DNA of 59,749 nt, filler included, from Nemertoderma westbladi (lineage: Eukaryota; Animalia; Xenacoelomorpha), in NCBI GenBank assembly GCA_032718475.1. It is 3 parts of 3 records of this genome, joined end to end, with 100 filler letters (N's around TTAATTAATTAA, not from the genome) between each part and the next. Parts side by side here need not be neighbours in the genome. Positions count along the whole stretch, not along the records: positions 23,606 to 50,741 come from JAUCBJ010003841.1; 2 more parts are not named here. One strand, 5' to 3'. This document shows, piece by piece, positions 6,211-50,841 of the stretch. Numbering within the stretch: position 1 is the first letter of the stretch; each line of letters opens with the position of its first letter. The notes below the pieces were generated by a model, which saw only the letters and a list, made by a program, of their open reading frames with translations, ran no database searches and was not told where the DNA came from. Both the position numbers and the translations under genes were made by a program.

Positions 6211-6299
6211 GAGGACGGAGGTTCCAAAGCTGGTGTTCTTGGCTGTGGACAAAATCACATACTGACTCAACTCCACGAGTTTCCGTATACAATCTCCAA

Positions 6300-6581: not shown

Positions 6582-6783
6582 CCTACACCGCAATAACTTC
6601 CTCTGGAACCCGAATCCAGTCTCCCACACCGTGGATCATACGACGCGCACGGACTGGCTTCAGCGGATGTAAATTCAGTACACCAGGTAATTGGTACGGG
6701 CTAAAGTCGATTCATAATTAAAAAGACATTAAACAGACATTAAATTGGCAGGTTAAACTGCTAAAGGTCTAAAAGCGCGAACA
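6582..6783 (+). mobile_element. 3' portion of LTR, copy C
   Basis: Matches ~4830-5022 and ends GGTCTAAAAGCGCGAACA. Confidence 0.75.
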
Positions 6784-7341
6784 CTGATCGAGTTGTGAAT
6801 ATAGAAGGAGAGAGCCCCTTTGATGTCAGTTTGTAAGTATAGAGAGCGACTAGCTTATTCCAGAAGCTAGCGCCCGATATTATTTTGTTAAAAGTCACCA
6901 AAACCTAGTATAAAAAATCGTGAAAACACAATACGCTTTGCCATAGCACACACACACGCGTCTTAAGATTGCTGTTCTACTACTGATATTATTATTTTGA
7001 CTTCTTTTTCTGTCGGCAGTATCTTTTACGCTAGTGTTCGGTCAACCCACTGGCCCGTTATTATACCCATATAAATCACACCGCGGCAAGTCTACAGTAG
7101 ATTTATGTCCATTAGCGGTAGTTAGGATTCGCTGCGCGGGATTGTTTCTCGTGAGTTTGTTCTGTTTTCTGTAGACTGTACTTCTGCCTCACCGGTTAGG
7201 AACCGGTCACCCTGATTGTCAAGTTAGCCCGGGCAATTGATTCGCCCAAGTTTGGTGGAAGACATCAGGCCCGTTCTCGCCAGCAGCAGTTTGTCTACTT
7301 TTAGTAGCTATTATTAGGCTCGACTGCGTTGGCACTTTACA

Positions 7342-7802
7342 TTTTGCATTAACAATTTTGAAATTTGATGAAATTTTACATATCTTTTTTCATATTTAAA
7401 TTTGCGGGAAGCCGCAGCACTACATTACACTGCTGTATTGAGGACTGCAGTTACTGCTGTATTGTACTGCTGTGCAGTCGTTAGCGATATAGCTCACCTC
7501 TACCGGTAGGCGGTATCCCAACTGACAACTACAGAACTACGGCTGTACGGTTCTCGTAGCAGTTCGGTCCCAGACATGGACTAAAAACATCTTAAAACAT
7601 TCTGTAGTTGTCAGTTGGGATACCGTCTACCGGTGCGGTAGAGGTGAGCTATAACGTTAACGACTAATGCCAGCACAGCTGTACAATACATCAGTTACTG
7701 CAGTCCCCAATACAGCAGTTGTGCTGAGCGGTTTCCCGCAAATTTAAATATGAAAATAGATATGTAAAAATTCTTCAAATTTCAAAATTGTTAATGTAAA
7801 AA
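7342..7802. mobile_element. Foldback/MITE-like long inverted repeat (~195-bp arms)
   Basis: 7342-7537 is the imperfect reverse complement of ~7600-7802 (e.g. TATCCCAACTGACAACTACAGAA / TTCTGTAGTTGTCAGTTGGGATA). Confidence 0.8.
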
Positions 7803-8399
7803 TTAATAATTTTCACCCCTCTTATTTCAATTTTCGATTCAGATTGGGTTCAGATTTGCTATAATTCTCGAGATTGGGTCCAGATTGGTTCAGATAATAT
7901 GATTTAAGTACTATCCGATTTCCTGACTTCTGGAGCCAGGAGATGAAGTTACCATCACCCCATTTGCGTATGTGTTTCGCCGGGATTTTGATATTTTAAA
8001 CTATTCTTTATTGCATACAAACCAACTGGTTCTCGCACCCTACAGTGATATTTTTGTTTTAATTATTATTCTACTGTATGATATATGATGCAGTATATCA
8101 TGGATGATTCTAAATTAGGAAAACACTAGTAAAACATTAAAACACTAGGAAAACATAGGAAAGGTACTGTAAAACACCCGAAAAACAGAGAAAATATTGA
8201 TCAGCAGAAAATTTAACACAAGTACTTCTCTGAATTGACAATCATAAATGTACTCCTTAAGTAATCACCGTAAAACATAGGGAATACACTATAAAAACAC
8301 TATAAACCTTCCGGAAAACAGTGAAAAAATTAATCAGCATTAAATTTTACCTATATGCAGCAAAAAAATAAATTTTAGGTGTCTAATACTGCCCAGAAA

Positions 8400-9250
8400 T
8401 CTTGTTGCCAGGCAACCAAAGTACAGTAACCAATCAGCATACAGTGCAGTATCAGTAATATCCTTGTTTCGCCCTCGCGTCATCAGATGATAGTGGCAAT
8501 GGTGGAATTGGTCTATTGATGAATCCAACTGCACATGCAGCATTGGACAAAATAGACCAAATCTCTAACCGCATCATCCGTTGCCACTTCTCATGTTCTG
8601 GAAGACTGGCTAGGAAGTTTCCTAAGGTGGTTCTGATTGTGTGCTACTCTCCAACTAGTGTTGCCCCTGTAGAGGAGGTGGAAAATTTCTACCACAATCT
8701 ACAAGCAGCTACTGATGGAGTGGATCAGCATGCATTCTTAACATTCCTGGGAGACTTTAATGCAAGTCTGTATCAATCACCTACATCGCCCTGGGTCTAT
8801 AGCAATAGTGTTAACCTAAATTCTGTCCATCTTCAGGATTTTATCTCTGGAAATGGATTGTTTTCGGCTGGAACCCAGTTCAAGAAGCGAACTGGAAAGC
8901 TATGGACTCATAGTGGACCCAGTGGTCACAAGTCCCAGATAGACCATATTCTGTTTCGTAGGAAATACAGGAGCTCTATACAAAACTGTAATGCATTTAC
9001 ACTTCGACCCTTCTCCAGTGATCACCGCCTTATTGTGGCCAAGGTAAGACTTAGTCTGCGTGCTAGCAGAACAACGAAATCTGCCTTGCCGCGGCATGAC
9101 TGGTCCTCTCTGTTGCAACAGCCAAGTGTGAGATCCAGCTTAACACTACAGCTGAGCAACAGGTACGAGGTTCTTGCCTCTGAGGCGGCAGATCACTGTG
9201 AGGGCTATACTGCCTTCACAGAAGCAGTTAAGTTAGCAGCTGCAGAAACA
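8400..9250 (+). mobile_element. RTE-clade LINE fragment, apurinic-like endonuclease domain
   Basis: Motifs CYSPT, LGDFNA, QIDHIL and SDHRL are present. It is truncated at ~9250 by the tail of an oppositely oriented LINE. Confidence 0.85.
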
Positions 9251-10133
9251 GTTATTATTATTATTGCACCTCTATACATAATTAATTAATTTAAATAAGA
9301 AACCAGTATATAGAGGGAGAACATCACCCAGGTACAAAGTACACTAATGAGTGAAATAAAATATTACAATATAAATTCCGCTCCTTTAAGTGAAATCAAA
9401 TTATACGTACTGTACTATACGGAAAAAACACATACTGATAAGAATTGGTGCATTAAAATTAAAATATATATATATAAATAATAAAAAATTATGTTTTATA
9501 TTAGTCTAAAAATCTGTTAAAATGACTGTACGGAAGTAGATCAATCTGTAAAATTCTAGATTTAAAATTATTATAGCTGGACGCATTTACTAACTCAGGC
9601 GGCAATGAATTCCAAATATCTACTATGCGGTGAGAAAAAGAAAATTTCACCACTTGTAGACGGGCTTGTGGCTTAAAAATTTTCATATTATGCCCTCTTG
9701 AAGATTGACGCGTATTAAAGGTAAAAAAGTTATCAATTGGTAGGTCAACACGCCTATGTAAAATAGAGTACATCATTTTTAAATCAGTAAGTAACCTACT
9801 TACTTCTAGTGGTTGCAATTTCAACTGTAATAAGCGATTCATATAGTCTACATATCTTAAATTGCACCTAGAAAAGAGTCTACGTGTGAAGTATCGCTGT
9901 ACTCGCTCGATTAAATCTATAATGCCTACATGGAAAGGAGATGTTATAACCGTACAGTATTCTAGAATTGGCCTAACATAAGTTTTATACGCAGTGAGAA
10001 TGGCTTTTGGGTTACTTGTCTTAAAACATCTGAAAATCATATTGATAATTTTAAAAGCTTTTGCAACTTTCTCCTTACAATGAAGGTCAAAAATTAGATT
10101 GGCACATACGGTTACCCCTAAATCTTTACAAAA
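9251..10133 (-). mobile_element. 3' end of a CR1/L2-type LINE (RT C-terminus, 3' UTR, (AAT)n tail)
   Basis: AYKTYVRPILEYC, IERVQRYFTR, RGHNMKI and FSFSHRIVDIWNSLP motifs; the tail appears as TTATTATTATT at ~9252. Confidence 0.85.
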
Positions 10134-12500
10134 AGTCAGTCAGTCAGTCAGTCAGTCAGTCAGTCAGTCAGTCAGTCAGTCAGTCAGTCAGTCAGTCAGT
10201 CAGTCAGTCAGTCAGTCAGTCAGTCAGTCAGTCAGTCAGTCAGTCAGTCAGTCAGTCAGTCAGTCAGTCAGTCAGTCAGTCAGTCAGTCAGTCAGTCAGT
10301 CAGTCAGTCAGTCAGTCAGTCAGTCAGTCAGTCAGTCAGTCAGTCAGTCAGTCAGTCAGTCAGTCAGTCAGTCAGTCAGTCAGTCAGTCAGTCAGTCAGT
10401 CAGTCAGTCAGTCAGTCAGTCAGTCAGTCAGTCAGTCAGTCAGTCAGTCAGTCAGTCAGTCAGTCAGTCAGTCAGTCAGTCAGTCAGTCAGTCAGTCAGT
10501 CAGTCAGTCAGTCAGTCAGTCAGTCAGTCAGTCAGTCAGTCAGTCAGTCAGTCAGTCAGTCAGTCAGTCAGTCAGTCAGTCAGTCAGTCAGTCAGTCAGT
10601 CAGTCAGTCAGTCAGTCAGTCAGTCAGTCAGTCAGTCAGTCAGTCAGTCAGTCAGTCAGTCAGTCAGTCAGTCAGTCAGTCAGTCAGTCAGTCAGTCAGT
10701 CAGTCAGTCAGTCAGTCAGTCAGTCAGTCAGTCAGTCAGTCAGTCAGTCAGTCAGTCAGTCAGTCAGTCAGTCAGTCAGTCAGTCAGTCAGTCAGTCAGT
10801 CAGTCAGTCAGTCAGTCAGTCAGTCAGTCAGTCAGTCAGTCAGTCAGTCAGTCAGTCAGTCAGTCAGTCAGTCAGTCAGTCAGTCAGTCAGTCAGTCAGT
10901 CAGTCAGTCAGTCAGTCAGTCAGTCAGTCAGTCAGTCAGTCAGTCAGTCAGTCAGTCAGTCAGTCAGTCAGTCAGTCAGTCAGTCAGTCAGTCAGTCAGT
11001 CAGTCAGTCAGTCAGTCAGTCAGTCAGTCAGTCAGTCAGTCAGTCAGTCAGTCAGTCAGTCAGTCAGTCAGTCAGTCAGTCAGTCAGTCAGTCAGTCAGT
11101 CAGTCAGTCAGTCAGTCAGTCAGTCAGTCAGTCAGTCAGTCAGTCAGTCAGTCAGTCAGTCAGTCAGTCAGTCAGTCAGTCAGTCAGTCAGTCAGTCAGT
11201 CAGTCAGTCAGTCAGTCAGTCAGTCAGTCAGTCAGTCAGTCAGTCAGTCAGTCAGTCAGTCAGTCAGTCAGTCAGTCAGTCAGTCAGTCAGTCAGTCAGT
11301 CAGTCAGTCAGTCAGTCAGTCAGTCAGTCAGTCAGTCAGTCAGTCAGTCAGTCAGTCAGTCAGTCAGTCAGTCAGTCAGTCAGTCAGTCAGTCAGTCAGT
11401 CAGTCAGTCAGTCAGTCAGTCAGTCAGTCAGTCAGTCAGTCAGTCAGTCAGTCAGTCAGTCAGTCAGTCAGTCAGTCAGTCAGTCAGTCAGTCAGTCAGT
11501 CAGTCAGTCAGTCAGTCAGTCAGTCAGTCAGTCAGTCAGTCAGTCAGTCAGTCAGTCAGTCAGTCAGTCAGTCAGTCAGTCAGTCAGTCAGTCAGTCAGT
11601 CAGTCAGTCAGTCAGTCAGTCAGTCAGTCAGTCAGTCAGTCAGTCAGTCAGTCAGTCAGTCAGTCAGTCAGTCAGTCAGTCAGTCAGTCAGTCAGTCAGT
11701 CAGTCAGTCAGTCAGTCAGTCAGTCAGTCAGTCAGTCAGTCAGTCAGTCAGTCAGTCAGTCAGTCAGTCAGTCAGTCAGTCAGTCAGTCAGTCAGTCAGT
11801 CAGTCAGTCAGTCAGTCAGTCAGTCAGTCAGTCAGTCAGTCAGTCAGTCAGTCAGTCAGTCAGTCAGTCAGTCAGTCAGTCAGTCAGTCAGTCAGTCAGT
11901 CAGTCAGTCAGTCAGTCAGTCAGTCAGTCAGTCAGTCAGTCAGTCAGTCAGTCAGTCAGTCAGTCAGTCAGTCAGTCAGTCAGTCAGTCAGTCAGTCAGT
12001 CAGTCAGTCAGTCAGTCAGTCAGTCAGTCAGTCAGTCAGTCAGTCAGTCAGTCAGTCAGTCAGTCAGTCAGTCAGTCAGTCAGTCAGTCAGTCAGTCAGT
12101 CAGTCAGTCAGTCAGTCAGTCAGTCAGTCAGTCAGTCAGTCAGTCAGTCAGTCAGTCAGTCAGTCAGTCAGTCAGTCAGTCAGTCAGTCAGTCAGTCAGT
12201 CAGTCAGTCAGTCAGTCAGTCAGTCAGTCAGTCAGTCAGTCAGTCAGTCAGTCAGTCAGTCAGTCAGTCAGTCAGTCAGTCAGTCAGTCAGTCAGTCAGT
12301 CAGTCAGTCAGTCAGTCAGTCAGTCAGTCAGTCAGTCAGTCAGTCAGTCAGTCAGTCAGTCAGTCAGTCAGTCAGTCAGTCAGTCAGTCAGTCAGTCAGT
12401 CAGTCAGTCAGTCAGTCAGTCAGTCAGTCAGTCAGTCAGTCAGTCAGTCAGTCAGTCAGTCAGTCAGTCAGTCAGTCAGTCAGTCAGTCAGTCAGTCAGT
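10134..12500. repeat. (CAGT)n microsatellite, ~2.37 kb, ~590 units
   Basis: Apparently uninterrupted tetranucleotide repeat. Confidence 0.98.
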
Positions 12501-13015
12501 GTAAGAACCACAGGCCACCCAAAGCCACACATAGGACTCCTAACTAAACCCAAATTCTTCCCCCTAATACTACAAAGTAGAGACGAAAATCTGGATTGTC
12601 AGCCCCCTAATACTGTAACAGCGGCTGGTCCCCGGTCCTCAACTGACTAGCCCTGACCGCAATGGTGGCCCCCTGCCAGCGTTGCCCCATCTTGGATCCT
12701 CTGCACTCCCTTCCGTCGCTTCCCCCCGGTGCGCCCGCCGCGCCTACCAGTACTTTAGCCCTCCATGTTAGAACAAATAGCTACCGTATCGGTGCATGCA
12801 TTCGCAAAATAGTCTGACAGTCTAAAGGGAATCCCTTAGGATTATCGCATCTCAATCACATAGAAATCAGTAATTAAATGTAGAAATCATAGTTCGAGAT
12901 TGTAATTAGCAGTAACCATCATCAAATCTACGTAATTTAAGAAAAAACAGCAAAGAATTTAAATCAGAAATAACACAGAAGCAGAATAAGTAAATAGTAA
13001 ATAAGTGTAAAAAAA

Positions 13016-14834
13016 TTACATTGACAAGAAGAAAAATTGCAGTAGCACATACCAGAAACACAGCCAATTTATAGATGATGAAATAGGGATGACGCAATAA
13101 TCGTCTGATTGGTTTATATTGGGTTCGATATATTTCAGGTCATCCTCCAGGAATGTCATGTCCAAATTCCAATGTACTAAACGGCGGTAGTCCATAAATG
13201 TTTCCAAATTGGAAGGTGGACGCAGACTAGCTTCTATGGTCACAATATTGTAAGGTTTTTTTAAATGAGTTCAGTTTTACTAAAGAATCCAAATGCTGAT
13301 GTAAAGTTTCTAATTCCACGAGGTCCAAAGGATTTACTAGCGGTAGAAATTGCATATCCTGTCCGGGGTGCTTGGGTTGTATTACATAGTGTTGCTTGAG
13401 CATCACGAAGCAAGGATGGTCTTTGATCCCATAAAAGGGGTAGTGTAGAGGGCGACGCGATACGTTTATTCCGTGGACCTTTTCTCGAATCACGTCAGCT
13501 TGAGTGCGAGAAGGGCGAGAAGGCGAAACGGGTTCTCAACGTGTTGATTTCCGGTTGAAACGCGACGTTGTCCATAGCCTCCAACAAAGCGAGCTCCGTT
13601 AATAAGGTACCAGATGGAGTCGTGGATAAATGCGCATGAATGCCGGCTAGACTGGACGACATTATTAACTGGGTGCTTTCGTCGCTAGGAGGTATAACTA
13701 TACCTGGTGTCAACTGTTCGCCTGGCGTTACGGCTCTAGTCGTCCTAAATCCTCTTCCGAATCCGGGTGGGATCAGGGGAGTTATCACCGGTTCCTCTAG
13801 GGGAATCAGCTGTTCTGGTAGAACCATATCTAAATATTCGGAATAGTCCTCGTCTAGGGGGCCGAAATCTTGAGGCAGGACCGGGGATGGTTGGACCTTG
13901 GGAGCTAGAGGTCGCACTGAAAAACGCGGGACGTCGGCGGGCAGATGCTCCATTCTGCACAGTTTCTTTAAGGCTCGTTCATCAATACCGAATAGATCGC
14001 ACTCATACCCTCCATATGTGAAACGCGTGTAGCAATGTTTAGGACAGCGTTCACGGGGGTGGTTGACCAGTCGACCCCATCGCGCGTGGTCTTTGTGGTT
14101 TACCTGCTGGTTGGGATGTGGACAATCGTCGCAATAATACCATAATTTAAAGTCCTGGCGACTCACGTGCGGGGATCGAGCTCCGGTTTTACAATATTCT
14201 TCCATAGCGTCGAAATGGTCCGGTAGCACAGGTAAAGGTCTACTTGCAGTCAAATACATCATTGTATGATATAAATGTTTAAGCTCCGCTATCGGGTCGG
14301 GGTGAATACCTTTGGGATAATGAGTTTGTTGAGTTTGGGCCGCCGCTATATTTAAATAAGTTTCTCGAAGAAACGTGATTATGTCCTCGAATTTGCCGCG
14401 TTAACGCTGGTTTCTGCGTCATCCGTCGACATGGTGTCTTGGATGGCGTCTTCCCTGTCCATTCGCGCGGTATCCTCCCGTTGTCTCTGTACATGATAGC
14501 ACCACATTTCCATGTCTTGTCACTCATGAACATCTTCTGAGTATATAAGATTGCTCGGGTGTCCAGATATGACAAACGGTTTGTAAGATCCATCTATATT
14601 AGTATACCTGTCCATAAAGGCGCGGTAATGTAGCCACTCGGATACCTCTACCAGGGACATTAAAGGTTCTGTATACTGTTGCTGTACTCCAGGTGTCAAC
14701 AAATCCTCCATCATCTCTCGCATACCTCGACGATATTCCTCTGAAAGTTGTTGTCGCTGTATATTGATATTATCCATTGGATCGTCATTAGAAGTATCCA
14801 TTGTTATTATTGTAAGAAACAAATATGTTATCAA
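13016..14834 (-). pseudogene. Disrupted ORF of unknown function (copy 2), diverged paralog of 1650-3808
   Basis: MMYLTASRPLPVLPDHFDAMEEYCKTGARSP vs MMYLTANRPLPVVPDSFEQMEEYCKTGERSP; FYGIKDHP in both copies; FLPLVNP vs FLPLINP. It is broken by a stop at 14520-14522 and by frameshifts. Confidence 0.75.
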
Positions 14835-16199
14835 CCCAACAAAGGCGAACCAAAGTTAATTATTGTTATAGTTATCAAGGTTCGCGCGGGTCGGCAATGG
14901 CAAGCCGCCCTATTTCCCCCAGCCCGACATGCACCCGAGCTGCCCCTGGCCACGTTAGCGCTGCTACGCCAATTCCCTATCCAACAGGCATTGATGAACG
15001 GGTGGATGACGCAACAGCTAACGTGCAGGAAAAGCTCGAGGCTGGTCTTATCCAAGGGCTATTCGTCGGGGTAACTAATATCGCAATGTAATTGCAGTTA
15101 GTCAGCAATAAGGCTTCGGTTCGCTACAGTAAACACACGTAGAGTGTAGAGCACAATATCACAACACGTACCGGTTGACTGGTATGAAATTTTTATCACA
15201 AATCTATTATTTCCTGAACGTTGATATTAGTTTCCATGGAAACTCACTAAATATATTTAAAGATATTAAATTTAGCAAATACGATAAACTCTAGAACTTT
15301 AATAAAAAACAGGGGTTGCGCGAGCGACACACCAGCGTCCCAATGTTCTAAATTAATTATTAATTTATTGAAGATCAGCATTCGGTAAATATAGCGGTAG
15401 GATAGGGTATTGCTCATTCATACAGATCTGGGTTTACTGTGATATTATTACGTCTTTGCTGGTTATTATTTAATTTATTTATTTGAATGTGGTGTTTGTC
15501 TGTATAGTATTGGTGTTTGTACTATCGGGATATTAATGTCATAATTGAGGGTTGATGATATTAAGTTATTAATAAATAACATAATAAAGGTTGACGCGAT
15601 CTGGTTACTTAAACTAAGTTTACTCATCCCTTGTGAGAGAGCCACAAAAAGGACCGCGACCGTTCCTGTAATGCTCATTATTACAGTGACTTGAACGGAT
15701 TTATGGATGTGATATTGTATTAATCAATATCGAGCTATGTTGGTTCTTGAAGTTTCAAGCCAACTAATTGACATCTCTTACTGTACTCTGGCAATTGACA
15801 AGAAGCGGGAGTAGTGATTAAGACTCAGCATTCAAGTGTGATTGGGCTGTCATATTACAGTAAGACCAAGGTTTGTTATTGTCATGTGCCATGTTTAATA
15901 ATGACTTATCATGACTATTACGATTTATTATAATTTTATTTGTTACTCCCTTTGTACTCGGGTTATACAAGAAGTGGCGGGCCGTCTCCAGAATTTACCC
16001 AGAGTTTGGTTTAACCGAAATAAAGGATATGGATTCCGCATTCAATTGTATTATCACCGTCATCCTACAGTTAAAGGGTTTTGGTTGGCTGCGCGTCATG
16101 TTTAATAATGACTTATCGCAACATGTTATTAATGTTGGGTTCAGGTTTCATGCGTCGTGTGTATAACGGCTTTTCATGAACCTCCCATTTATATATTTT

Positions 16200-16385
16200 T
16201 TAGCGTGTTCTAGAACTGAGATCAAGTTTCATGCACTGTGTTTAGAATAGTTTATCATGAAATATCCCACAGTCCTATTGTTTATGTCATTTTGCTTATA
16301 GTTGTTCTAGAATTAAGATCAAGTTTCATGTACCGTGTATAAAACGATTTATCATGAAACATCCCATAGTCCTATTGTTTTTTGG
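16200..16385. repeat. ~97-bp tandem duplication in the non-coding region between integrase and the extra ORF
   Basis: TGTTCTAGAA..GATCAAGTTTCATG..TTTATCATGAAA..TCCCA..GTCCTATTGTTT occurs twice. Confidence 0.7.
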
Positions 16386-16582
16386 GGACAAAGCGTTATA
16401 AGGATAATTTTTGTTAGCCTGTCAAGCTGAGCATATGGCATATTTTGAAAAAATGGGTCAGTGGTGAAGAGATGGAGTCAGTGGTTAACTTCACCTAACC
16501 CGTTCCCACGCTCGAGTGTGATATGCGGCGCACTCAAGCGTTACCTAGGAGTTAACAAATTATAGCAGGAAGTAAGTTAAGT

Positions 16583-17393
16583 TCATTGGCTTAACTTCCT
16601 GCTTTCCATGTTGCCAGATTCTTCCCGTGCCATTTCTAGTAGGCAGAGGCGTCCTATGGGACGGTTGAGCCTCTGTGGAACAAAATTTAGCTTGCCCTTT
16701 TCTCTGAGCACCACTAAATCCACTGATCTTACTAGGCCATCCGCGCTAATGTGTGTCTCTATGATGCGCGCTGTCTGCCAATATTTGCGGGGAAGATTGG
16801 AGTCTACTACTAAGACCATGTCGCCAACTCTGGCATTGTCTTTTACTAAGTTGTATACTGGGGAGGTAAAAACGCTCAAAGTGGTTTGCAAATCAGGATG
16901 ACAGTAATTGTGTCATCTTCCAGGTTTGTTGCAATAGCTCGTCACCGTCTTCTGGTGTTGAGACTGGCAACATCACTACTTTCTTTTTCATTAGAAAGTG
17001 GGCTGGTGTGAGGGCCTCTAGTGCTTTGGGGTTGGTCAAAACGGGCATTAGGGGCCGACTGTTTAGATAGGCGGTCACTTCCTCTAAGATGGTACCGAGA
17101 ATTTCATCAGTGAGGTAGGCTTTGCAAGGCAGTATATGATGAAAAGCTACCTTTACACGATGAATTAATCTCTCCCAGCTCCCACCCCACCAGGGTGCAT
17201 TTGCGGCGTTAAAGGTCCAACTGGAAGCGGAAACCTTCAACATCTCATCAACTTGATCCTGGTTCCATTCTTCTATAGAGCGTGCTATCTCGTTGTTCGC
17301 TCCTATAAAGTTCGTGCCTTTGTCAGACTTCATCGTGTTGCTAGTGCTGTATCGACTAATTTGCCTACATAAGCACAGGATAAAGCTGTTCAT
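16583..17393 (-). mobile_element. BEL/Pao LTR retrotransposon integrase core and C-terminal domain (degenerate)
   Basis: SDKGTNF, APWWGGSWERLI, LNSRPL and LTPAHFL, then GDMVLV...PR..W..ARI...DGLVRSV...RPIGRLCLL, the characteristic BEL/Pao pol C-terminus. A frameshift lies near 16892. Confidence 0.92.
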
Positions 17394-19015: not shown

Positions 19016-20220
19016 TGTTCGCGCTTTTAGACCTTTAACAGTTTAACCTGCTCATTTAAGTGTCTCCTGAATCGACTATTGCCCTTGCCAATTGACATCA
19101 GTTGAAACCAGTCTATGCGCGGCGTATGACCCACAGTGTGGGAGACTGGATTCGGTTCTAGAGAAAGTTATTGCAGTAGGCTACTTTGTATTATTCGATT
19201 GATCGCTGATATATAATCTCCGACAACTATATTTACTTTTGGGGAAATATTAACGGTTCCTTTTGGACGTGGTGCTTTAAGTATCAAACAGAGTTATGAC
19301 TTACATTAATTACAACTAGAGGCTATAAGGTATCGCAAATGGCGCATTCTTTAGGAATGCTTTATTAACCTTCACACTACTTCACACTAATTCACACTAA
19401 TACGCACTGATTTGCCGACTGTCACTGATTTTGATCATATATAAGGAGGGTTGCAACTGACATATGTAGGGATTATGAAATAGCATTTATTTCACACCAA
19501 AACCACTATAAATTGAGCCCACAATTAGTAATGGTACACCCTTCTGCTTACCTCAGTAATTAAGAAAGTTCAGGGGTTTACGATTATTTATCAGTATTCT
19601 CCGAATATAACATCCATCATATAAACAGCAATTAACAACAATATAAAACAGCATTAAGGCAGTGCGGTGAAAATAGTCAGTGAATTGTTCAGGTCAGTCA
19701 GTTAGTAGGTGCGGTATGCAGTGTTATGTTAATAGATTTGCGTTCTTATGACTCTAGCCTCTGATGTTTAGGGCAAAGTCTGAAACGTCAGAACTTCCGA
19801 ATGAATCCTGAATGAAGTAGGATTCTAGGAAAAACTGCCTATTGCGTCATCTCCCGTAGGCTGCTGTAAACAAAAAGGGGAGATCGCTCTGATTGGCTGA
19901 AAACATATGTCAACAAAGAATATTCTCACACAAAGAAACAGCAGGTAGATTTCGTCATGTCCCAACTCTGTGTTTCTTGACAGGCGCGTAGGTGTACAAT
20001 TATTATTATTATTAGCTGACGTCGTACATGAGACAATAGAATTAATTGCACAGTACAAAATACTTAGGAATAATTAAGTAATTAGGTAATAATTAAATTT
20101 AAAGCACAAATAAGATATTAATGGTGAATATATGAATATAACAACGATATTATAAGTACAATATTTAGTATTTAGCGCATTGCGTAAAATGACTTATTAT
20201 GTCCGCAAAAACCTTTTACA
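19016..20220 (-). mobile_element. Full-length LTR, copy D (subfamily 2)
   Basis: The reverse complement starts TGTAAAAGGTTTTTGCGGACAT and ends GCGCGAACA. It lies upstream of, and on the same strand as, the BEL/Pao integrase. No clean TSD or PBS is visible. Confidence 0.75.
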
Positions 20221-22888: not shown

Positions 22889-23505
22889 TGTTCGCGCTTT
22901 CAGACCTTTGGCAGTTTAACCCACCAAATTAAGATGTCTTCTAGATATTAAATCAGTTTTTAGTCTATGACAAGTATTTGATTCACTACACTAGTCGAAA
23001 CCAATCCGTGCGCGACCATTCACCCGCTGGATATTCCCGGGAGATTGGGTTCGACGGTTTAATTTTATTGCTATGTAAGCCTAATGTATTATTCGACTGA
23101 CAGTACTATATAATCTCTGACAATATTATTCACCTTCGGTAATATTAACAGTTCCTTTAGGACGTGGCGCTTTATCTATATAAACAGAGTTATGACTTAA
23201 ACTACTCACAACGATATGGCTTAATTATAATTCACATATATGGCGCATTCTTTAGGAATTGCTTCTTTAACAGACTCACTCATACACAATGCTGCACAAT
23301 ACTGCACACTAATCTGCCAATCTTCACTGATTTTAGTCACATATAAAAGGAACACAGGCTGACTCATGTAGGGTCTATCAAATAACATTAGATTCACTTC
23401 AAACCACTTTAACATAAGTCACAATCGTTTATCTGTAACCCTTCTCTCTTACCTTCGGTATATCAAGAATATTGGGTTTCGGGGTTATTTATCGTTATTC
23501 CAAAT
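22889..23505 (-). mobile_element. LTR, copy E (near-identical to copy A), cut by an assembly gap
   Basis: Reverse complement of ~544-1161 with few substitutions; it yields the same spurious 60-aa ORF. Confidence 0.8.
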
Positions 23506-23605
23506 NNNNNNNNNNNNNNNNNNNNNNNNNNNNNNNNNNNNNNNNNNNNTTAATTAATTAANNNNNNNNNNNNNNNNNNNNNNNNNNNNNNNNNNNNNNN
23601 NNNNN
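23506..23605. other. Assembly gap with artificial TTAATTAATTAA linker
   Basis: 100 bp of N with a central six-frame stop linker, identical in design to 50742-50841. Confidence 0.95.
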
Positions 23606-23630
23606 TAGTACCGTAGTGTCGGTGTCGGTC

Positions 23631-24428
23631 GACCCTGTCGCGTGTCCGTTCCACCCCTCACGAACCCCGAAGGGAACGATCATCGAGAACCAGCACGGCT
23701 TGGCTAAGGGTCGGTCCAGTCGGTAGACTCTGTCGCGTATCCGTACCACCCCTCTCGAACCCCGAAGGGTTCGGTCATCGAGAACCAGTACGGCTTGGCT
23801 AGGAGTCTGTCGTGTCGGTGGACCCGTTCGCGTGTCCGTTCCACCCCTCACGAACCCCGAAGGGTTCGATCATCGAGAACCAGAACGGCTTGGCTAGGGG
23901 TCCGTCGGTTCATCACAGAAACCCAACCACCTAGGCTTTCCGAGTCCGTTTCAGGCTCGTAGTCGCTTCGGCAGCCGAGAAACTGCTCCGAACAGTCGGT
24001 AGGCCAGTAGAGTCTAGTCGAGTCTAGTCCTTTGTCTTTCGACCCCATCGCGTGTCCGTTCCACCCCTCACGAACCCCGAAGGGAACGATCATCGAGAAC
24101 CAGTACGGCTTGGCTAAGGGGTCTGTCGTCGGTTCCCGTCGCAAATCCCAGTACAAGCAGTCAGCATTCCGAGTTCTTTTCAGTCTCGTAGTAGCTGCCG
24201 TTGACCAGAGACCGCTAAGGGCAGTTCTCGTCAAACCCGTCCTGTGGCCAGCCCTTTCGCATGTCCGTCCCACCCCTCACGAACCCCGAAGGGATCGGTC
24301 ATCGAGAACCAGTACGGCTTAGGTCAGGGGGCAGTCGTTAGTTGACCACCCGTTCGCGTGTCCGCTCCACCCCTCACGAACCCCGGGGTTCGATCATCGA
24401 GAACCAGAACGGCTTGGCTACTAAGGGG
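23631..24428 (-). ncRNA. Array of six ~83-nt putative structured RNA hairpins with kink-turn and UUCG loop
   Basis: Copies at 23631-23712, 23725-23808, 23820-23903, 24041-24123, 24251-24332 and ~24346-24428. Minus-strand core is UUCUC-GAU-GA-UCGAACCC-UUCG-GGGUUCG-UGA-GGGG, and the closing stems covary. Confidence 0.6.
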
Positions 24429-24837
24429 CCGTCGGTGCCCGTCGCAAATCCCTGACACAAGCAGTCAGCGGTCCGAGTTCTTTTCAGTCTCGTAATGGCT
24501 GCTGTTGGCCAGGGACCGCTAAGGGCAGTCCTTGTCCTTTAGGCCTGGCGCATTACCAAATCCACCCCTACAGGCAGCAGGAAGTTGGCCAGGGCCTAAT
24601 AGTACTCAGGCTAACCTGAATACTGCTTGCATTTTCCATCCCCCCTGGCCCTTATAACTATGAAATTATTCCCGTACCCTGTAAGTTGCCCCAAAGTTCG
24701 CCCATAAATCGCCCCCAGTTTATTGATTGTGCCCAAAACCCATGGTCCCGCACCCAGTAGTAATATCGGAATAATCAATTTTAATAAAATACAAAAATAT
24801 TCAACTCGCGTTATGGAAAGTTGAAATACCGCGAACA

Positions 24838-27810: not shown

Positions 27811-28622
27811 TCGGTTACCGTAGTGAATGGATAGTTTATTATCAACCAACCACTCATTATAGGATTCTAGAAATATATATAGCGAATATTATACAGTGTA
27901 GTGAATATTACACAGTTAGTGAATATTATACAATTGGATTATATATATTTGTATATATATATTATATTTATATATTTGGAACCCCCTAATTGAGAATTCT
28001 ATTACATTCTATGTAAGCTGACAAAAAATTAATTTATATTTACAATTTTTCCTTAAAACATATAAGCCTACGAAAATCTCGTGTTCATGACTTATATTTT
28101 TGTAAGTTAAATATAATTAATTAATATAAATGAAAACTAATGCACATTTTTGTTTAACAACAATTATACACATGATCTCTTGTTGTAAGTTTTAAATGTT
28201 ATACCTTCTGCTATCTGGCGTCATGGATAAAGAGTTCTGCAGATGGCAAGCAAATCCACAACGAGAAAAAATATTCTGCATGCCCCACGATCGGCCCAAT
28301 AGATTATATCTAGGTGGGCCACATATCAAGAATATTAAACAGAGTGCACAATGTTCGATATACCAGAAATATAAGTAAAGGGTGACCCTATTTCCGAAAC
28401 CCAGCTCTGTCACACAACCTTGTTGCTTATATATATTTAGTCATTGTTTCCACCAGGATTATGACTCGGTTTAGGCCTACTATATTGATTGTTATATGGC
28501 AGCTTCCTGTTTTGAACAAACATTGCGGCCTGTCAATATAATACCTTCCCCGACTTCTTAAGCACACTGGACTTAAGAAAATTTGCGAACTTGGAACTTG
28601 TATGGCTGACATATTCACTTGG

Positions 28623-28703
28623 TAATTGAAAGTACCGACATACTGACTAATGGGGCTTGGTGGTATATAAATATAATAGTCAGTATGTCGGTACTTTCAA
28701 TTA
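28623..28703. repeat. Perfect 27-bp inverted repeat with 27-nt loop
   Basis: TAATTGAAAGTACCGACATACTGACTA / TAGTCAGTATGTCGGTACTTTCAATTA. Confidence 0.9.
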
Positions 28704-28947
28704 TCACATTATGAAGTTAAGCAGAATTCCGACAATTACTGCAAATTGTAAAATCTAATATATTTTTTATACTGTGTGTGTTTGCCCCAGCAACCTACCA
28801 GTTTTCCATTGGTATCACTGATTTACTTACTGTATATGGTTCCAATGTTCTGTGGTCTGATGTCTGTTTGGGGTAGGTGGTAACAGAGTTCATGGTGCGA
28901 TTTTTTAGGTCATTGGTGCAATATAGATAGGCTTTGGGTAATCCTTT

Positions 28948-29003
28948 GTCCAGCTGATGAGGTGTCGAGATTACCGCGTACTGGGTCTCAGACACCGAAA
29001 CGC
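28948..29003 (+). ncRNA. Putative hammerhead ribozyme with atypical strand order
   Basis: Core CTGATGA 28954-28960; stem II GGTGTC/GACACC; GAAA 28997-29000; stem I CCAG/CTGG; stem III ACGC/GCGT; GUA cleavage triplet 28978-28980. Confidence 0.6.
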
Positions 29004-31267
29004 AACCATATTTTTGATAAAATTAATTATTTTTGCTTGAGTTCTACCCCTTTACGGCGACAAAATGTCATATATTTTTCTATGGAATATAGGCTTAGCT
29101 ATTGTGCAGTATACTACCGGTATCATTTAGTGTATGGCGGTTAGGTTAGGGTTAGGGAGCGATACATACCTGTATGTTGAGCATGTTTCAATATATTTGT
29201 TTATGTCGTTTTTGTTTGTATTATTTTGTGTCGTTTTTTGATGGCCTTAGGGCTAAGTACTACTTAGGGCTTAATGTCCTGATCCTATGTTTTTTTGTTA
29301 GATTAAGGGGTGTAAGACTTTAGTGTTTACCCATTTATTATATATATTGACTTGGAGCAGTTTTACTCCTATTCTACTGACTGACATTGCGCCATAGGCC
29401 AAACATATCATGTCACTTAAGGAAGATCTAGATAATACTCATTCTAGTAATTAATGTACTGTAGTATACAAACTAACAAGTTGATATTTCACAATTATTT
29501 AATTAATTCATTGTAGATCAGATTCGTAAACAATAAGCAATGTGTGTCCATTTAAGCTCAATATATTCTCGGCTTTCTTGCAATATTAATAAAAAATTAG
29601 TAAAACGGTAAATTTTTAAGAATTTAATTTTAAAAAGTCCACCAAAAAATATGAAGCACCTTATGGAATAACTTAGCTTGCCAGGGTTGATTATGTCTCT
29701 CTAACAAACTTGCTTAGCATCAAAAATAAATTTAGCTTTTTGACCACAAACTCACCTGCCCTTGTGCAGACTATATTACTGACACCTCCACTGTAGATAA
29801 CCTCGTTGGACAAACCGGTATCCCCAACCCACAATTTCGTGAGGGAAATAAGGTCTTGTAGACCACCCGGGGCTGAAGGGCGAGTTGGTATATTACAATA
29901 CCCGACACCTGGTGGACAGAGAGGTTGACACACCGTACAAGCGATGGGAGAAACAGGAGGTGTATAGGGTTGAGGAGAGGAGACTAGAGGAGGTCGCCAG
30001 GAGAGAGAGAAGGGAGGCAACTGGCAGAGAGGCAGATATAAGGGGAGGGGAGTACGAGTTCGAATCCCAAGACTTGGAGGAGTTGAGGTGGGGATCGGAG
30101 ACCTCAGGCGAGTTTCAGCTGGGGCACAAACTGGGTTGGATGGAAGAGACACCGATACAGTCTACATCGGGGCTGCAAGGAATGCCGATGCCCGCGGGGT
30201 CTGAGGGCGACTTTGGAAGGAAGGTAGACCGAGGGAGGTAGAAGGGTGGAAGGCCATGGGCGAATACCAGGCCAGAAAGGGACACAGTGGATCAACCGGG
30301 ATCCCGGTTCCGATAGAGAGGATCGGCCACTCGGACACGGACTGGGTGGACAGGAGTGTGGTGACAGCCAGCGGGGCGAAAGCCTTCTGGGACGCACCCG
30401 GCAAACGGACCTGGGAGCATGGGGAGCCGGTAATGGACTTCGTGGCGAACATGATCCGACTGCGCGAGCAACCGGGGATGGCACCACGGGTAGTGTTTGG
30501 AGAAACGATACCGAGGGAGGAGGAGGACGTCTATATGGGTAGGGAGGACAACGTCGAGATGTTTGCCTACCAGCGGCTCCACAGACCCAGGAGGCTACGT
30601 GGAGCCAAGGACGACTTTGGGCGAGAGACACTGAAGACGGTTTCGATTACCGTGGGAGACTAACCCATCAGCAAAAGAACTGTCTATACCATTACCAGAA
30701 GGGGATGACGTGTCTTTGCTGCCGCGAGTCTACGCACAGGATGTGCGCGTGCCTAAGGTTGCACCACGGGTGTTCGAAGTGCAAGTTTAGGGGGCACTTT
30801 GAGTGCCAGTGTGACTGGATGGAGGACGAGGAGAAGTTTCGCACTTTCGAGGAGTGGGCCGACGTCGGAGTCATGACACGACAAAGGATGAAGGCCCAGG
30901 AGTTCCGTTGGGGCTTCTTCAACATTAATCTAAAAGCCCACCAGCAGATCACCAAGAGGAGACTACCATTCATGTATCAAGAGGTAGCGACAGCGGCATC
31001 ATACGGAGGGGTCATCAACACCCAAAGATATCTGGATTGATGGACACCAGAAAATAGGATAGAATTCAGGGATTTTCTGGCGGAACATGTGGCGCGTGCG
31101 ATGAAAATGATCTTGTGGGACGCTACCAGGGGGAAACAGGAGGGACACTGAGTGGGACCACCTGCGAAGCGATACCGTGAGTTAATAACACCCGTGCCCA
31201 AAGAACCAACAATGGGGCTTGGTAAGACTGTATCAGCGAGGAAGCGACCCAGGCAGGACGACGGTAG
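28979..31267 (+). mobile_element. Duplicated retroelement-like unit, copy 1 (2289 bp), with fragmented gag-like CCHC ORF
   Basis: Near-identical to 32865-35153 (offset 3886). ORF 30705-31040 has two CX2CX4HX4C knuckles (CLCCRESTHRMCAC, CSKCKFRGHFECQC) and a premature TGA where copy 2 has AGA. Confidence 0.75.
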
Positions 31268-32864
31268 CAGGGCTCAGCCCTATAGCATATGGTGGTGGTT
31301 GTTAAAGTGCTAAACGAACACCTGCAGGGCTCGGCCCTATAGCATACGGTGGTGGTTGTTGGCCCTATAGCATACGGTGGTGGTTGTTGGCCCTATAGCA
31401 TACGGTGGTGGTTGTTAAAGTGCTAAACGAACACCTGTTGGGCTCGGCCCTATAGCATACGGTGGTGGTTGTTAAAGTGCTAAACGAATACCTGCAGGGC
31501 TCGGCAGCATACGGTGGTGGTTGTTAAAGTGATAAACGAACACCTGCAGGGCTCGGCCCTATAGCATACGGTGGTGGTTGTTGGCCCTATAGCATACGGT
31601 GGTGGTTGTTAAAGTGCTAAACGAACACCTGTTGGGCTCGGCCCTATAGCATACGGTGGTGGTTGTTAAAGTGCTAAACGAATACCTGCAGGGCTCGGCC
31701 CTATAGCATACGGTGGTGGTTGTTAAAGTGATAAACGAACACCTGCAGGGCTCGGCCCTATAGCATACGGTGGTGGTTGTTAAAGTGATAAACGAACACC
31801 TGCAGGGCTCGGCCCTATAGCATACGGTGGTGGTTGTTAAAGTGATAAACGAACTCCAGCAGGGCTCGGCCCTATAGCATACGGTGGTGGTTGTTAAAGT
31901 GCTAAACGAACACCTGCAGGGCTCGGCCCTATAGCATACGGTGGTGGTTGTTAAAGTGCTAAACGAACACCTGCAGGGCTCGGCCCTTTAGCATACGGTG
32001 GTGGTTGTTAAAGTGATAAACGAACACCTGCAGGGCTCGGCCCTATAGCATACGGTGGTGGTTGTTAAAGTGATAAACGAACTCCAGCAGGGCTCGGCCC
32101 TATAGCATACGGTGGTGGTTGTTAAAGTGATAAACGAACACCTGCAGGGCTCGGCCCTATAGCATACGGTGGTGGTTGTTAAAGTGCTAAACGAATACCT
32201 GCATGGCTCGGCCCTATAGCATACGGTGGTGGTTGTTAAAGTGATAAACGAACACCTGCAGGGCTCGGCCCTATAGCATACGGTGGTGGTTGTTAAAGTG
32301 ATAAACGAACACCTGCAGGGCTCGGCCCTATAGCATACGGTGGTGGTTGTTAAAGTGCTAAACGAACACCTGCAGGGCTCGGCCCTATAGCATACGGTGG
32401 TGGTTGTTGGCCCTATAGCATACGAACACCTGCAGGGATCGGCCCTATAGCATACGGTGGTGGTTGTTGGCCCTATAGCATACGGTGGTGGTTGTTAAAG
32501 TGCTAAACGAACTCCAGCAGGGCTCGGCCCTATAGCATACGGTGGTGGTTGTTAAAGTGATAAACGAACACCTGCAGGGCTCGGCCCTATAGCATACGGT
32601 GGTGGTTGTTAAAGTGATAAACGAACACCTGCAGGGCTCGGCCCTATAGCATACGGTGGTGGTTGTTGGCCCTATAGCATACGGTGGTGGTTGTTAAAGT
32701 GCTAAACGAACACCTGCAGGGCTCGGCCCTATAGCATACGGTGGTGGTTGTTGGCCCTATAGCATACGGTGGTGGTTGTTAAAGTGCTAAACGAACACCT
32801 GCAGGGCTCGGCCCTATAGCATACGGTGGTGGTTGTTAAAGTGATAAACGAATACCTGCAGGGC
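31268..32864. repeat. 57-bp minisatellite with 28-bp sub-repeat
   Basis: Unit CCTGCAGGGCTCGGCCCTATAGCATACGGTGGTGGTTGTTAAAGTG(C/A)TAAACGAACA, with interspersed 28-bp GGCCCTATAGCATACGGTGGTGGTTGTT units. Confidence 0.95.
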
Positions 32865-35153
32865 TACTGGGTCTCAGACACCGAAACGCAACCATATTTT
32901 TGATAAAATTAATTATTTTTGCTTGAGTTCTACCCCTTTACGGCGACAAAATGTCATATATTTTTCTATGGAATATAGGCTTAGCTATTGTGCAGTATAC
33001 TACCGGTATCATTTAGTGTATGGCGGTTAGGTTAGGGTTAGGGAGCGATACATACCTGTATGTTGAGCATGTTTCAATATATTTGTTTATGTCGTTTTTG
33101 TTTGTATTATTTTGTGTCGTTTTTTGATGGCCTTAGGGCTAAGTACTACTTAGGGCTTAATGTCCTGATCCTATGTTTTTTTGTTAGATTAAGGGGTGTA
33201 AGACTTTAGTGTTTACCCATTTATTATATATATTGACTTGGAGCAGTTTTACTCCTATTCTACTGACTGACATTGCGCCATAGGCCAAACATATCATGTC
33301 ACTTAAGGAAGATCTAGATAATACTCATTCTAGTAATTAATGTACTGTAGTATACAAACTAACAAGTTGATATTTCACAATTATTTAATTAATTCATTGT
33401 AGATCAGATTCGTAAACAATAAGCAATGTGTGTCCATTTAAGCTCAATATATTCTCGGCTTTCTTGCAATATTAATAAAAAATTAGTAAAACGGTAAATT
33501 TTTAAGAATTTAATTTTAAAAAGTCCACCAAAAAATATGAAGCACCTTATGGAATAACTTAGCTTGCCAGGGTTGATTATGTCTCTCTAACAAACTTGCT
33601 TAGCATCAAAAATAAATTTAGCTTTTTGACCACAAACTCACCTGCCCTTGTGCAGACTATATTACTGACACCTCCACTGTAGATAACCTCGTTGGACAAA
33701 CCGGTATCCCCAACCCACAATTTCGTGAGGGAAATAAGGTCTTGTAGACCACCCGGGGCTGAAGGGCGAGTTGGTATATTACAATACCCGACACCTGGTG
33801 GACAGAGAGGTTGACACACCGTACAAGCGATGGGAGAAACAGGAGGTGTATAGGGTTGAGGAGAGGAGACTAGAGGAGGTCGCCAGGAGAGAGAGAAGGG
33901 AGGCAACTGGCAGAGAGGCAGATATAAGGGGAGGGGAGTACGAGTTCGAATCCCAAGACTTGGAGGAGTTGAGGTGGGGATCGGAGACCTCAGGCGAGTT
34001 TCAGCTGGGGCACAAACTGGGTTGGATGGAAGAGACACCGATACAGTCTACATCGGGGCTGCAAGGAATGCCGATGCCCGCGGGGTCTGAGGGCGACTTT
34101 GGAAGGAAGGTAGACCGAGGGAGGTAGAAGGGTGGAAGGCCATGGGCGAATACCAGGCCAGAAAGGGACACAGTGGATCAACCGGGATCCCGGTTCCGAT
34201 AGAGAGGATCGGCCACTCGGACACGGACTGGGTGGACAGGAGTGTGGTGACAGCCAGCGGGGCGAAAGCCTTCTGGGACGCACCCGGCAAACGGACCTGG
34301 GAGCATGGGGAGCCGGTAATGGACTTCGTGGCAAACATGATCCGACTGCGCGAGCAACCGGGGATGGCACCACGGGTAGTGTTTGGAGAAACGATACCGA
34401 GGGAGGAGGAGGACGTCTATATGGGTAGGGAGGACAACGTCGAGATGTTTGCCTACCAGCGGCTCCACAGACCCAGGAGGCTACGTGGAGCCAAGGACGA
34501 CTTTGGGCGAGAGACACTGAAGACGGTTTCGATTACCGTGGGAGACTAACCCATCAGCAAAAGAACTGTCTATACCATTACCAGAAGGGGATGACGTGTC
34601 TTTGCTGCCGCGAGTCTACGCACAGGATGTGCGCGTGCCTAAGGTTGCACCACGGGTGTTCGAAGTGCAAGTTTAGGGGGCACTTTGAGTGCCAGTGTGA
34701 CTGGATGGAGGACGAGGAGAAGTTTCGCACTTTCGAGGAGTGGGCCGACGTCGGAGTCATGACACGACAAAGGATGAAGGCCCAGGAGTTCCGTTGGGGC
34801 TTCTTCAACATTAATCTAAAAGCCCACCAGCAGATCACCAAGAGGAGACTACCATTCATGTATCAAGAGGTAGCGACAGCGGCATCATACGGAGGGGTCA
34901 TCAACACCCAAAGATATCTGGATAGATGGACACCAGAAAATAGGATAGAATTCAGGGATTTTCTGGCGGAACATGTGGCGCGTGCGATGAAAATGATCTT
35001 GTGGGACGCTACCAGGGGGAAACAGGAGGGACACTGAGTGGGACCACCTGCGAAGCGATACCGTGAGTTAATAACACCCGTGCCCAAAGAACCAACAATG
35101 GGGCTTGGTAAGACTGTATCAGCGAGGAAGCGACCCAGGCAGGACGACGGTAG
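32865..35153 (+). mobile_element. Duplicated retroelement-like unit, copy 2, with gag-like CCHC ORF 34591-35037
   Basis: Direct repeat of 28979-31267 that continues into unique G-rich sequence beyond 35153. Confidence 0.75.
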
Positions 35154-36998
35154 GGGTAAGGAACTTAGATGGTTCCTGGAGGGTCCGGGAGGAGCAATAT
35201 AGAACTCTAGGACTGATTACAGGCGATGTCAATGTGCCTGGAAGGCACCGCATGGACAAACCAGTACAATAATTCCTAAGTGCAATTAACCAAGTGCAAT
35301 TAGTATGTACGTAGGTAATCAATCAATATTAGAGAAAGTATAATATATGTACTATAGTCAGATATAACCTTTTCCAATTAGCTACTGGGACTGGGGACTA
35401 ATTGACTGAAACAGGAGGACGAGACATTAGACGGAACTCACTTCTTGAGTGTGATGGCATAAATGAGAATGTGAGGCCCAACAGAAGTGAGTGGGGATAA
35501 AACGGGTTGAGTATGGGAGGAGCATGGGGAGGAGGTATTAGGGTATGGGGAAGCAAAAGGGTGCGAGATTCAAGCGTGTGGAGCGGGCATGGAGGGGGAT
35601 GAGTCCTAAGGGACTAGTGAGAGAGATAGGGACAACAACGTCTGAAAGATAAAATTGTGTGAGGAGTGAGGGTGATTGTCTAAAACAGAGATGCAAGATG
35701 CCTTGGTACAGCGTAGCTCGCAGATGTACCAAGGATGGGTAGTGAAAACAGGCCCATGGGGGCCAGCCTGGAAAGCTGACCCTGAGAAGATAATTCCACC
35801 CCACATCCAATATTAGATTGGATTCCAGCGAAATTGAAGCACACTTAAGGTTGATGCTATCTTTTTACCGGGAAGATAGCATGGGGGGAGTGTAAGCGGA
35901 TTCAATTCCCTGCACTACCCAGCGGAAAATGGGCGAAGTGGCTTTTTACCAATTACAGTTGGGAAGGTGACATTACCAATATAATGTCACCTAATAACCA
36001 ACTCAGGCAACACACACTGCCAGCCACGTATAGAGTTGAGAGGCCATAAGCCATCTCAGGGGACAAAGGGGCTAGCAATTGGGGACAGTGGCAACAGGGA
36101 GTGGCGAGATGGAAATTAATTAGGTTAGCCAATGATGGGAGGGGAAAACAGGTGATTGGAACTCATCTATTGGCCAGGCCGCTCAGTACAGTAGGAGTAA
36201 CTAATATGTGTTAGCAATATAATCATTGTACTTGTTGATTATGATTCAGTTGGTATCTGTAGAGTTGTGAGACCGGAACGGTTTTTAACCGTCGTCATTA
36301 CCGTGCTATTATATTCTGACTGTGCTATTATTATGTTCTGACATTATAACAACTGACACTAAAAACTCAGTTATTCCAACGGCCTTCGGCCTCAATATTC
36401 AGACTACAGCCTTTCAGCAGCCTACGGACGCGGCGACGCATATAGTACCAAACAACACACCAGTCGGGGTTTAGAAACCAACTACTGGATCCCGTCACTC
36501 AAACAATATAAATTCAAATTTCATCTACAAACGCAACCACAAAAATTCATTACTAACAACACCATTAGGTATTAATAAGTTAACTATTTCCTTTATAAAA
36601 TACCAAAAACATAAAATGATACCACTAATATTAATTAAAACACCACTAACCGACACTGCAAAATATTTGGCCACGCTATAGTGACGCCACTTACCGGTAG
36701 CACACTACAGCATTTCTGCTGCACTGCTTATGCAAGCAGTGAAATTGCGCTTTACATCACTTTTTTCAGTTGCTGTCAATTTGCGCAACAGCTAGGAATG
36801 AGTAGGCTCTAGATTTATTGATGATATACCCATTGCCTTCTAAAATCACACAAAACATTTACTATATAGGCTACTTCCATAAAGGTAGATCTTCCTGGAC
36901 TATTGGCTGATGGTTGATACACATCCATGAATATAATAATCCATAAGATGAAGTGAAGTAAAGTTATCGGATAACGTGAAATTCAAAACACCATCGGG

Positions 36999-50741: not shown

Positions 50742-50841
50742 NNNNNNNNNNNNNNNNNNNNNNNNNNNNNNNNNNNNNNNNNNNNTTAATTAATTAANNN
50801 NNNNNNNNNNNNNNNNNNNNNNNNNNNNNNNNNNNNNNNNN
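50742..50841. other. Assembly gap with artificial TTAATTAATTAA linker
   Basis: 100 bp of N with a central linker. Confidence 0.95.

Follow-up and report, generated by a model that had tools for sequence, protein, structure and literature searches.

The closest described relatives of the ribozyme considered here are two hammerheads of type CSG, the name given to the block order C-S-G among the six hammerhead block orders defined by Eckert et al. 2023 (PMC10085705). CSG-1 and CSG-2 are two similar, unique sequences from soil-metagenome DNA whose organism and context are unrecorded. Both cleave co-transcriptionally at the predicted site, at 0.004 and 0.026 per min, and their published structure line includes a fourth helix in which the 5′ flank of stem I pairs with the stretch that follows the 5′ strand of stem II. 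Since examples and context were scarce, type CSG was judged by its authors to be less well supported, and weaker in biological relevance, than type SGC.

Further points of comparison come from mobile elements. Craig et al. 2021 (PMC8557442) describe Naiads as being without canonical hammerheads and flag eight of them as having half of the core 35-50 nt from the other half. These elements favour (TA)n targets and often have an inverted truncated copy at their 5′ end. Non-LTR retrozymes are thought, according to two other sources, to depend on Penelope-like enzymes (bioRxiv 10.64898/2026.07.22.740005; PMC11167929).

A hammerhead with the block order C-S-G

The candidate ribozyme lies on the plus strand of the window, by which we mean the whole 59,749-base stretch of Nemertoderma westbladi DNA that was analysed. 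Reading from the 5′ end, the first strand of stem I (CCAG, 28950-53, or 28948..28953 if extended by two possible G-U pairs) is followed by the core CUGAUGA (CTGATGA in the DNA; block C, 28954..28960) and by the 5′ strand of stem II (GGTGTC with G10.1 first, 28961..28966), whose six pairs with 28991-96 have a pair probability of ~0.9. Block S (28976..28984) comes next, made up of the stem III strand GCG (28976-78) continuing into U16.1, then A17 (these two being the TA at 28979-80), then the 3′ strand of stem I, CUGG (CTGG, 28981-84). Block G (28991..29003) closes the motif with the 3′ strand of stem II (GACACC, 28991-96), GAAA (28997-29000) and the second stem III strand (CGC, 29001-03). A fourth helix of seven Watson-Crick pairs joins stems I and II, its 5′ strand GGTAATC at 28937..28943 and its 3′ strand GATTACC at 28969..28975, in the same position as in the published CSG alignment; the 3′ strand partly coincides with a competing stem II extension (28967-71 paired with 28985-89). 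The hammerhead GUH rule predicts a cut between 28980 and 28981, after A28980.

The window copy has a complete hammerhead core (CUGANGA, GAAA, U16.1-A15.1 and H17), together with stems I (4-6 bp), II (6 bp) and III (4 bp, with an A-U pair) and the 7-bp fourth helix. Checked against the sequence, each of the nine segments from CCAG to CGC lies where the initial sequence-only reading had put it, and its claim that every invariant core nucleotide is present is borne out. The interval that it gave for the ribozyme, 28948..29003, is sound for the hammerhead proper but overlooked the fourth helix, which falls partly outside it. When both strands of the window were scanned for all six block orders, with blocks within 150 nt and G-U pairs allowed, a single match was returned, in the order C-S-G and at this locus, in agreement with the earlier claim of a strand order outside types I-III. 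A Watson-Crick descriptor with at least 4 pairs in stem I, at least 4 in stem II and at least 3 plus the A-U pair in stem III likewise matched the window once, against 0 matches in 960 Mb of simulated sequence (a third-order Markov model trained on the window minus its tandem arrays). No hammerhead model of Rfam reached its gathering score in the window, and none matched at E<=10 in 28500-29500, as is to be expected because the Rfam models describe the nested types I-III. Those three types were considered and rejected, as the block-order scan of the window found no nested reading with a distant cut strand and Rfam was negative.

As judged from its sequence, the ribozyme is a type-CSG hammerhead, non-circularly permuted and pseudoknotted, an order that has already been published. 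With CSG-1 and CSG-2 it has in common the block order, the full core, the pseudoknotted arrangement of stems I-III, a spacing of 5-6 nt between the 3′ strands of stems I and II, and an equally placed fourth helix, which makes the match complete. Unlike them it has unrelated stem sequences, a GUA triplet in place of GUC, a linker before stem I (the published examples have none), 0 nt rather than 2 nt before stem III, and the competing stem II extension; and, unlike these soil sequences, it sits in an animal genome inside a many-copy repeat. A literature search of open-access papers found none that puts type CSG in animal genomes or in Naiads. The novelty lies in this setting, an animal many-copy repeat, the strand order itself being known but very rare.

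We also searched for relatives elsewhere with a family-type pattern, which fixes the letters of stems I and III and is blind to other CSG families. It found 0 loci in viral contigs, 28 in metagenome contigs and 16 in prokaryote genomes. A stem II of at least 4 pairs was present at 0 of these 44 metagenome and prokaryote loci, and all were accordingly rejected as chance matches.

The many-copy repeat and its variants

Contig depth places the ribozyme in a non-coding, many-copy repeat of ~0.7 kb on the plus strand (28620..29340, ends approximate). In contigs from four public DNA runs, the summed depth is 4,700-17,000 (X1-X3) over 28403-29305 as against 26-38 over 28102-28402; unique contigs end at 28615-28652 and restart at 29303-29344. 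Downstream of the repeat the DNA is low-copy for ~500 bp, after which comes a second repeat, unrelated to the first, that extends beyond 35153. At its left end the ribozyme repeat has a 30-bp inverted repeat (97%; 28620..28706, unstranded) that may, on a reading drawn from PMC8557442, be an inverted truncated copy, and its right end, near 29335-29348, is TA-rich (one site). The Rfam miRNA matches in 28500-29500 correspond to this 30-bp hairpin and are all under gathering score. Contig joints at 28655-29298 and 28678-29290 tie the hairpin to the right end of the repeat in an ambiguous orientation; these joints hint that units in tandem or inverted arrangement exist at other places in the genome. 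The window itself contains one complete ribozyme copy and no tandem array of ribozyme units. A short run of telomere-like GGTTAG(G) units lies inside the repeat at 29139-29157, 140 nt 3′ of the ribozyme. Among the public sequencing runs, no RNA run is listed as carrying the sequence.

Variants of the family were read from contigs of the public DNA runs, among the rows listed; such contigs leave variants unphased. The motif is unchanged in contigs from two studies, and contigs identical to 28939-29009 (X2) and 28935-29014 (X3) have depths of 2636.6 and 1575, whereas most longer, divergent contigs in the same listing have depths of 13-37. This suggests ~40-180 identical copies of the ribozyme repeat, contig depth being no true copy number. 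Apart from single contigs, stems I-III are invariant among the rows listed, the exceptions including two single-contig variants with G28983A/C, which disrupts stem I. A variant GCTAAT occurs 5′ of stem I in X1 and X3 contigs and a variant ATTAGC 3′ of stem II in X2 and X3 contigs; each supplies one side of a fourth-helix swap from G-C to C-G, but the two are unphased and never together on one contig. The main X5 variant, A28973T (depth 552 of 699), breaks one fourth-helix pair with no partner change listed. Both positions with listed single-base insertions, 28966 and 28975, are at the borders of helices, and the possible 4-bp extension of stem II (AGGA/TCCT) is retained in the variants.

Elsewhere the window is animal DNA, with tandem arrays, fragments of non-LTR and hAT elements, and an intronless 516-aa alkaline phosphatase ORF (56932-58482) that is 41-49% identical to enzymes of many animal phyla; no nematode alkaline phosphatase is among the named best 120 matches. 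The second many-copy repeat, which is purine-rich, occupies about 29850-31267 and 33740-36260 and has many internal deletion variants in the contigs. Within it is a plus-strand stop-to-stop frame (34429..35037) in which two CX2CX4HX4C knuckle-like motifs can be read from the sequence, with an interrupted twin at 30543-31040; this frame has no Pfam match, and no homolog at E<=0.001 among 22 candidates. Other features include a ~620-bp repeat family (544-1161, 4334-5022, 19016-19681, 22889-23505 and 59153-59749, with one inverted pair 97% identical), frames at 1635-3808 and 13495-14400 that look alike by eye and are without a convincing Pfam match, GC-rich tandem units of 95-97 bp with internal hairpins at 23615-24536 that are without an Rfam match, a perfect (AGTC)n run of 592 copies between non-LTR element fragments at 10134-12500, and four 44-base N runs (23506-23549, 23562-23605, 50742-50785 and 50798-50841), which are paired with 12 bases between.

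Possible relationship to Naiad elements

The spacer between the half cores of the window ribozyme is 36 nt. We paired Naiad and CSG supplement sequences by eye, using no program, in part of the consensus file (PMC8557442 supplement). The 3′ ends of all seven nematode Naiad consensus sequences examined (Parc, the record before Parc, Nbra-1, Nbra-2, Nbra-3, Hcon and Hpol) pair in this way as sense-strand, four-helix CSG, with stem sequences that differ. The by-eye helices are 9-16 bp for the fourth helix, 5-6 bp for stem I, 4-5 bp for stem II and 6-12 bp for stem III, and the motif stands about 300-500 nt past the ORF in the records where the stop is visible (Parc, its neighbour record, Hcon and Hpol). 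Hcon and Nbra-1 read as CSG though they are unflagged in the metadata, in which other families are marked HHR_half_core or HHR_core, or are unmarked. Outside this nematode block, none of the core-word matches in the same part of the file reads as CSG by eye. The available parts of PMC8557442 do not describe a CSG fold in Naiad tails.

The window repeat may resemble Naiads in starting with a 30-bp inverted repeat and in its TA-rich end (one site). Unlike them it has no ORF, and it shows no sequence likeness to nematode Naiad tails in a motif look-up, in which 0 of 3 window motifs from around the ribozyme matched a Naiad tail in the accessible part of the supplement. When 24.5-31.3 kb and 34.4-37.0 kb were scanned with Pfam in all six frames, no Naiad ORF (N-terminal GIY-YIG, CxC, RT) or other Penelope remnant was found; the matches were confined to weak fragments of RVT_1 and hAT lying 3 kb or more away. 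A truncated or non-autonomous Naiad copy would likewise be without an ORF. Being a non-coding, many-copy repeat with a hammerhead, the window repeat is also like non-LTR retrozymes and canonical Penelope pLTR hammerheads (bioRxiv 10.64898/2026.07.22.740005; PMC11167929), but these carry type I hammerheads in tandem units whereas the window has one CSG unit.

The ribozyme repeat likely belongs with a Penelope-like (Naiad-type) retroelement, as its tail or as a derivative that is non-autonomous, and by analogy we lean, with some reserve, towards a parent of the Penelope/Naiad type. The combined reading, that this is a predicted cis-cleaving type-CSG hammerhead in a many-copy repeat that is likely such a tail or derivative, we hold to be probable.

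A duplication that begins beside the predicted cut

Positions 28979-31267 recur at 32865-35153 as a duplication of 2,289 bp with 2 mismatches (30447/34333 and 31038/34924). Along the plus strand, upstream DNA gives way to copy 1 (28979..31267), which comprises the 3′ half of the ribozyme repeat, the ~500 bp of low-copy DNA and the 5′ part of the second repeat. This is followed by an array of a 57-bp minisatellite (31267..32865) that has the same unit phase at its start and end, by copy 2 (32865..35153), which starts TA-CTGG, and by the continuation, copy 2 passing into the remainder of the second repeat. Of the ribozyme, copy 2 keeps just the 3′ half (32867-32889). Comparison with the flanks points to no clear source for the array unit (the best local score is 19), and the low depth of the array in reads implies that it is present at few loci. 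The 57-bp minisatellite has 28-bp sub-units.

The sequence-only reading had claimed that the second copy starts within 2 nt of the cut and that its T can be assigned to the preceding repeat, and comparison of the array units upholds this. The string GGGCT is followed by C in 23 of its 24 occurrences in the array and by A at the junction only, so that the junction T can be array and the A cannot, which means that copy 2 begins 1-2 nt 5′ of the predicted cut, not exactly at it. For a breakpoint distributed uniformly over 5 kb to 0.7 kb, the chance of falling within 2 nt of the cut is ~0.1-0.7%, a post hoc figure. In three runs the low-copy part of the duplication is 1.9-2.4x as deep as the unique contigs that neighbour it (52.4/21.8, 34.4/14.4 and 34.5/14.9-18.5), which is consistent with the duplication being real, unless those neighbours are single haplotypes. 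Among the rows listed there is no junction-spanning contig.

Cutting of read-through or tandem transcripts would yield RNAs with C28981 as their 5′ end, and copy 2 would then start where a cleaved RNA would start. Two routes to this arrangement can be envisaged. A cut read-through RNA of the locus may have been the template, copied back into the locus with a switch of template to the array; alternatively, DNA repair may have switched through another copy of the family that had itself been inserted from a cut RNA beside an array. We are inclined, with modest confidence, to the view that the breakpoint reflects cleavage; that the whole 2.3 kb was copied from RNA seems to us doubtful. The earlier proposal, in which reverse transcription returned the 3′ cleavage product to the locus, is no more than plausible: there is a single event, 1-2 nt off, which a DNA-level route through another copy of the family would explain equally.

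There is an appreciable chance that the ribozyme is real and the breakpoint has nothing to do with cleavage. Reverse transcriptase may have stalled at the fourth-helix hairpin, or microhomology-mediated template switching at the DNA level may have captured the minisatellite, near the cut by chance. Such an origin would suit a copy that starts 1-2 nt 5′ of the cut with 1-nt microhomology at both junctions (T at the start of copy 2, G at the other), and a block that includes unique DNA as well as a portion of an unrelated repeat, with an array between its copies. In its favour, too, the RNA upstream of 28979 folds into a hairpin whose base, at 28975, is 4-5 nt short of the breakpoint, but the cut is nearer, at 1-2 nt, than this base, and the uniform expectation given above counts against coincidence. 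Loose contig ends bear on both sides. None lies at 28979-28981 among the 15 rows listed of 38, so that there is no pile-up of 5′ ends in these rows, whereas 6 of the 7 'before' rows listed lie at 28984-28996, just 3′ of the cut, a weak hint that is confounded by variant subfamilies and edge effects. A cleavage-based reading of the breakpoint is further tempered by in-vitro work on an anole Penelope-like element, in which hammerhead cleavage was reported to be dispensable for insertion, and the cut to coincide with the end of no RNA read (PMC11167929).

Folding and mode of cleavage

The folding program used considers nested structures only and leaves pseudoknots unscored. In growing transcripts that begin at 28930 or 28900, the fourth helix has a probability of 0.62-0.97 for as long as stem II is unfinished; starting the transcript at 28850, which lengthens the 5′ flank, weakens it (0.20-0.66). 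Once 28996 has been transcribed the extended stem II replaces the fourth helix, and in the nested folding of the complete motif this extended stem, which buries the cut, stands at 0.87-0.97 and the fourth helix at 0.1 or less. Because the program cannot score pseudoknots, the extended stem II is to be seen as a competitor and not as a proven winner. Stacking summed over the helices of the four-helix fold comes to ~-40 kcal/mol, loop penalties not yet counted, compared with -14 to -16 for the hairpin with penalties included. Folding z-scores for the whole motif are unremarkable (-0.64 and -0.83), and are uninformative because the motif is a pseudoknot.

An active ribozyme fold is very probable. 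As the RNA emerges, the fourth helix would close first and stems I, II and III would follow; by closing early, it would hold the cut strand before the competing stem II extension could trap it, along a path that we infer from the folding of growing transcripts. The extended stem II hairpin would be the off state, and the expected outcome is cleavage in cis after A28980 by a co-transcriptional route to the active knot.

It is rather improbable, by comparison, that the RNA is mostly folded as the long hairpin of stem II and has no activity by itself, cleaving only with an element protein, or never in this subfamily. The dominance of the extended stem in nested folding and the retention of its 4-bp extension in the variants would fit such a state. 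So would two published observations, namely that cleavage by the anole Penelope-like element's hammerhead depended on protein (PMC11167929) and that CSG-1 and CSG-2 have 2 nt between the fourth helix and stem III where the window copy has no linker. Against this stand the stacking sum, albeit before loop penalties, the early closing of the fourth helix, and the unaided cleavage of published CSG RNAs of similar strand length (PMC10085705).

Less probable again is cleavage in trans or between tandem copies, with one RNA giving blocks C and G and another block S. The sequence-only reading offered this beside a pseudoknotted cis-acting hammerhead; the cis reading is the natural one and matches type CSG, and dimer or tandem cleavage has proved the weaker of the two. 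Dimer cleavage has been reported for small Penelope-associated hammerheads, to go by a title cited in PMC10085705, and in the nested fold the cut strand does lie in a loop. The fourth helix and linker lengths, however, agree with those of CSG RNAs that cleave during transcription, and the second copy in the window is without GCG and so unable to supply block S. As the layout is that of RNAs cleaving as they are transcribed, and the second copy lacks block S, dimer cleavage is the less likely mode.

That hammerhead-like words came together by chance, or that the duplication is an assembly error, is very improbable given the empty simulated sequence, the unchanged motif in contigs of two studies and the raised depth of the low-copy part in three runs (subject to its neighbours not being single haplotypes), even though a junction-spanning contig is absent among the rows listed and depth leaves fixation of the duplication undecided.

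Implications

A cis-cleaving hammerhead of type CSG, as we predict for this locus, invites a broader and more speculative reading, which on present evidence we think unlikely to hold in full: that CSG is the overlooked ribozyme of a branch of Naiads, working in animal cells and fixing where the copied RNA has its 5′ end, and that here a cut read-through transcript was copied back to yield a 2.3-kb transduction bounded by the ribozyme, the copying having jumped template to the minisatellite. If this were true, the two soil CSG sequences would be scraps of such animal elements. The window repeat and the seven nematode Naiad tails, the latter paired by eye from part of the consensus file, would together give the CSG permutation a host, a likely job and ample covariation, and they make testable the question of whether Naiads truly proliferate without a hammerhead.
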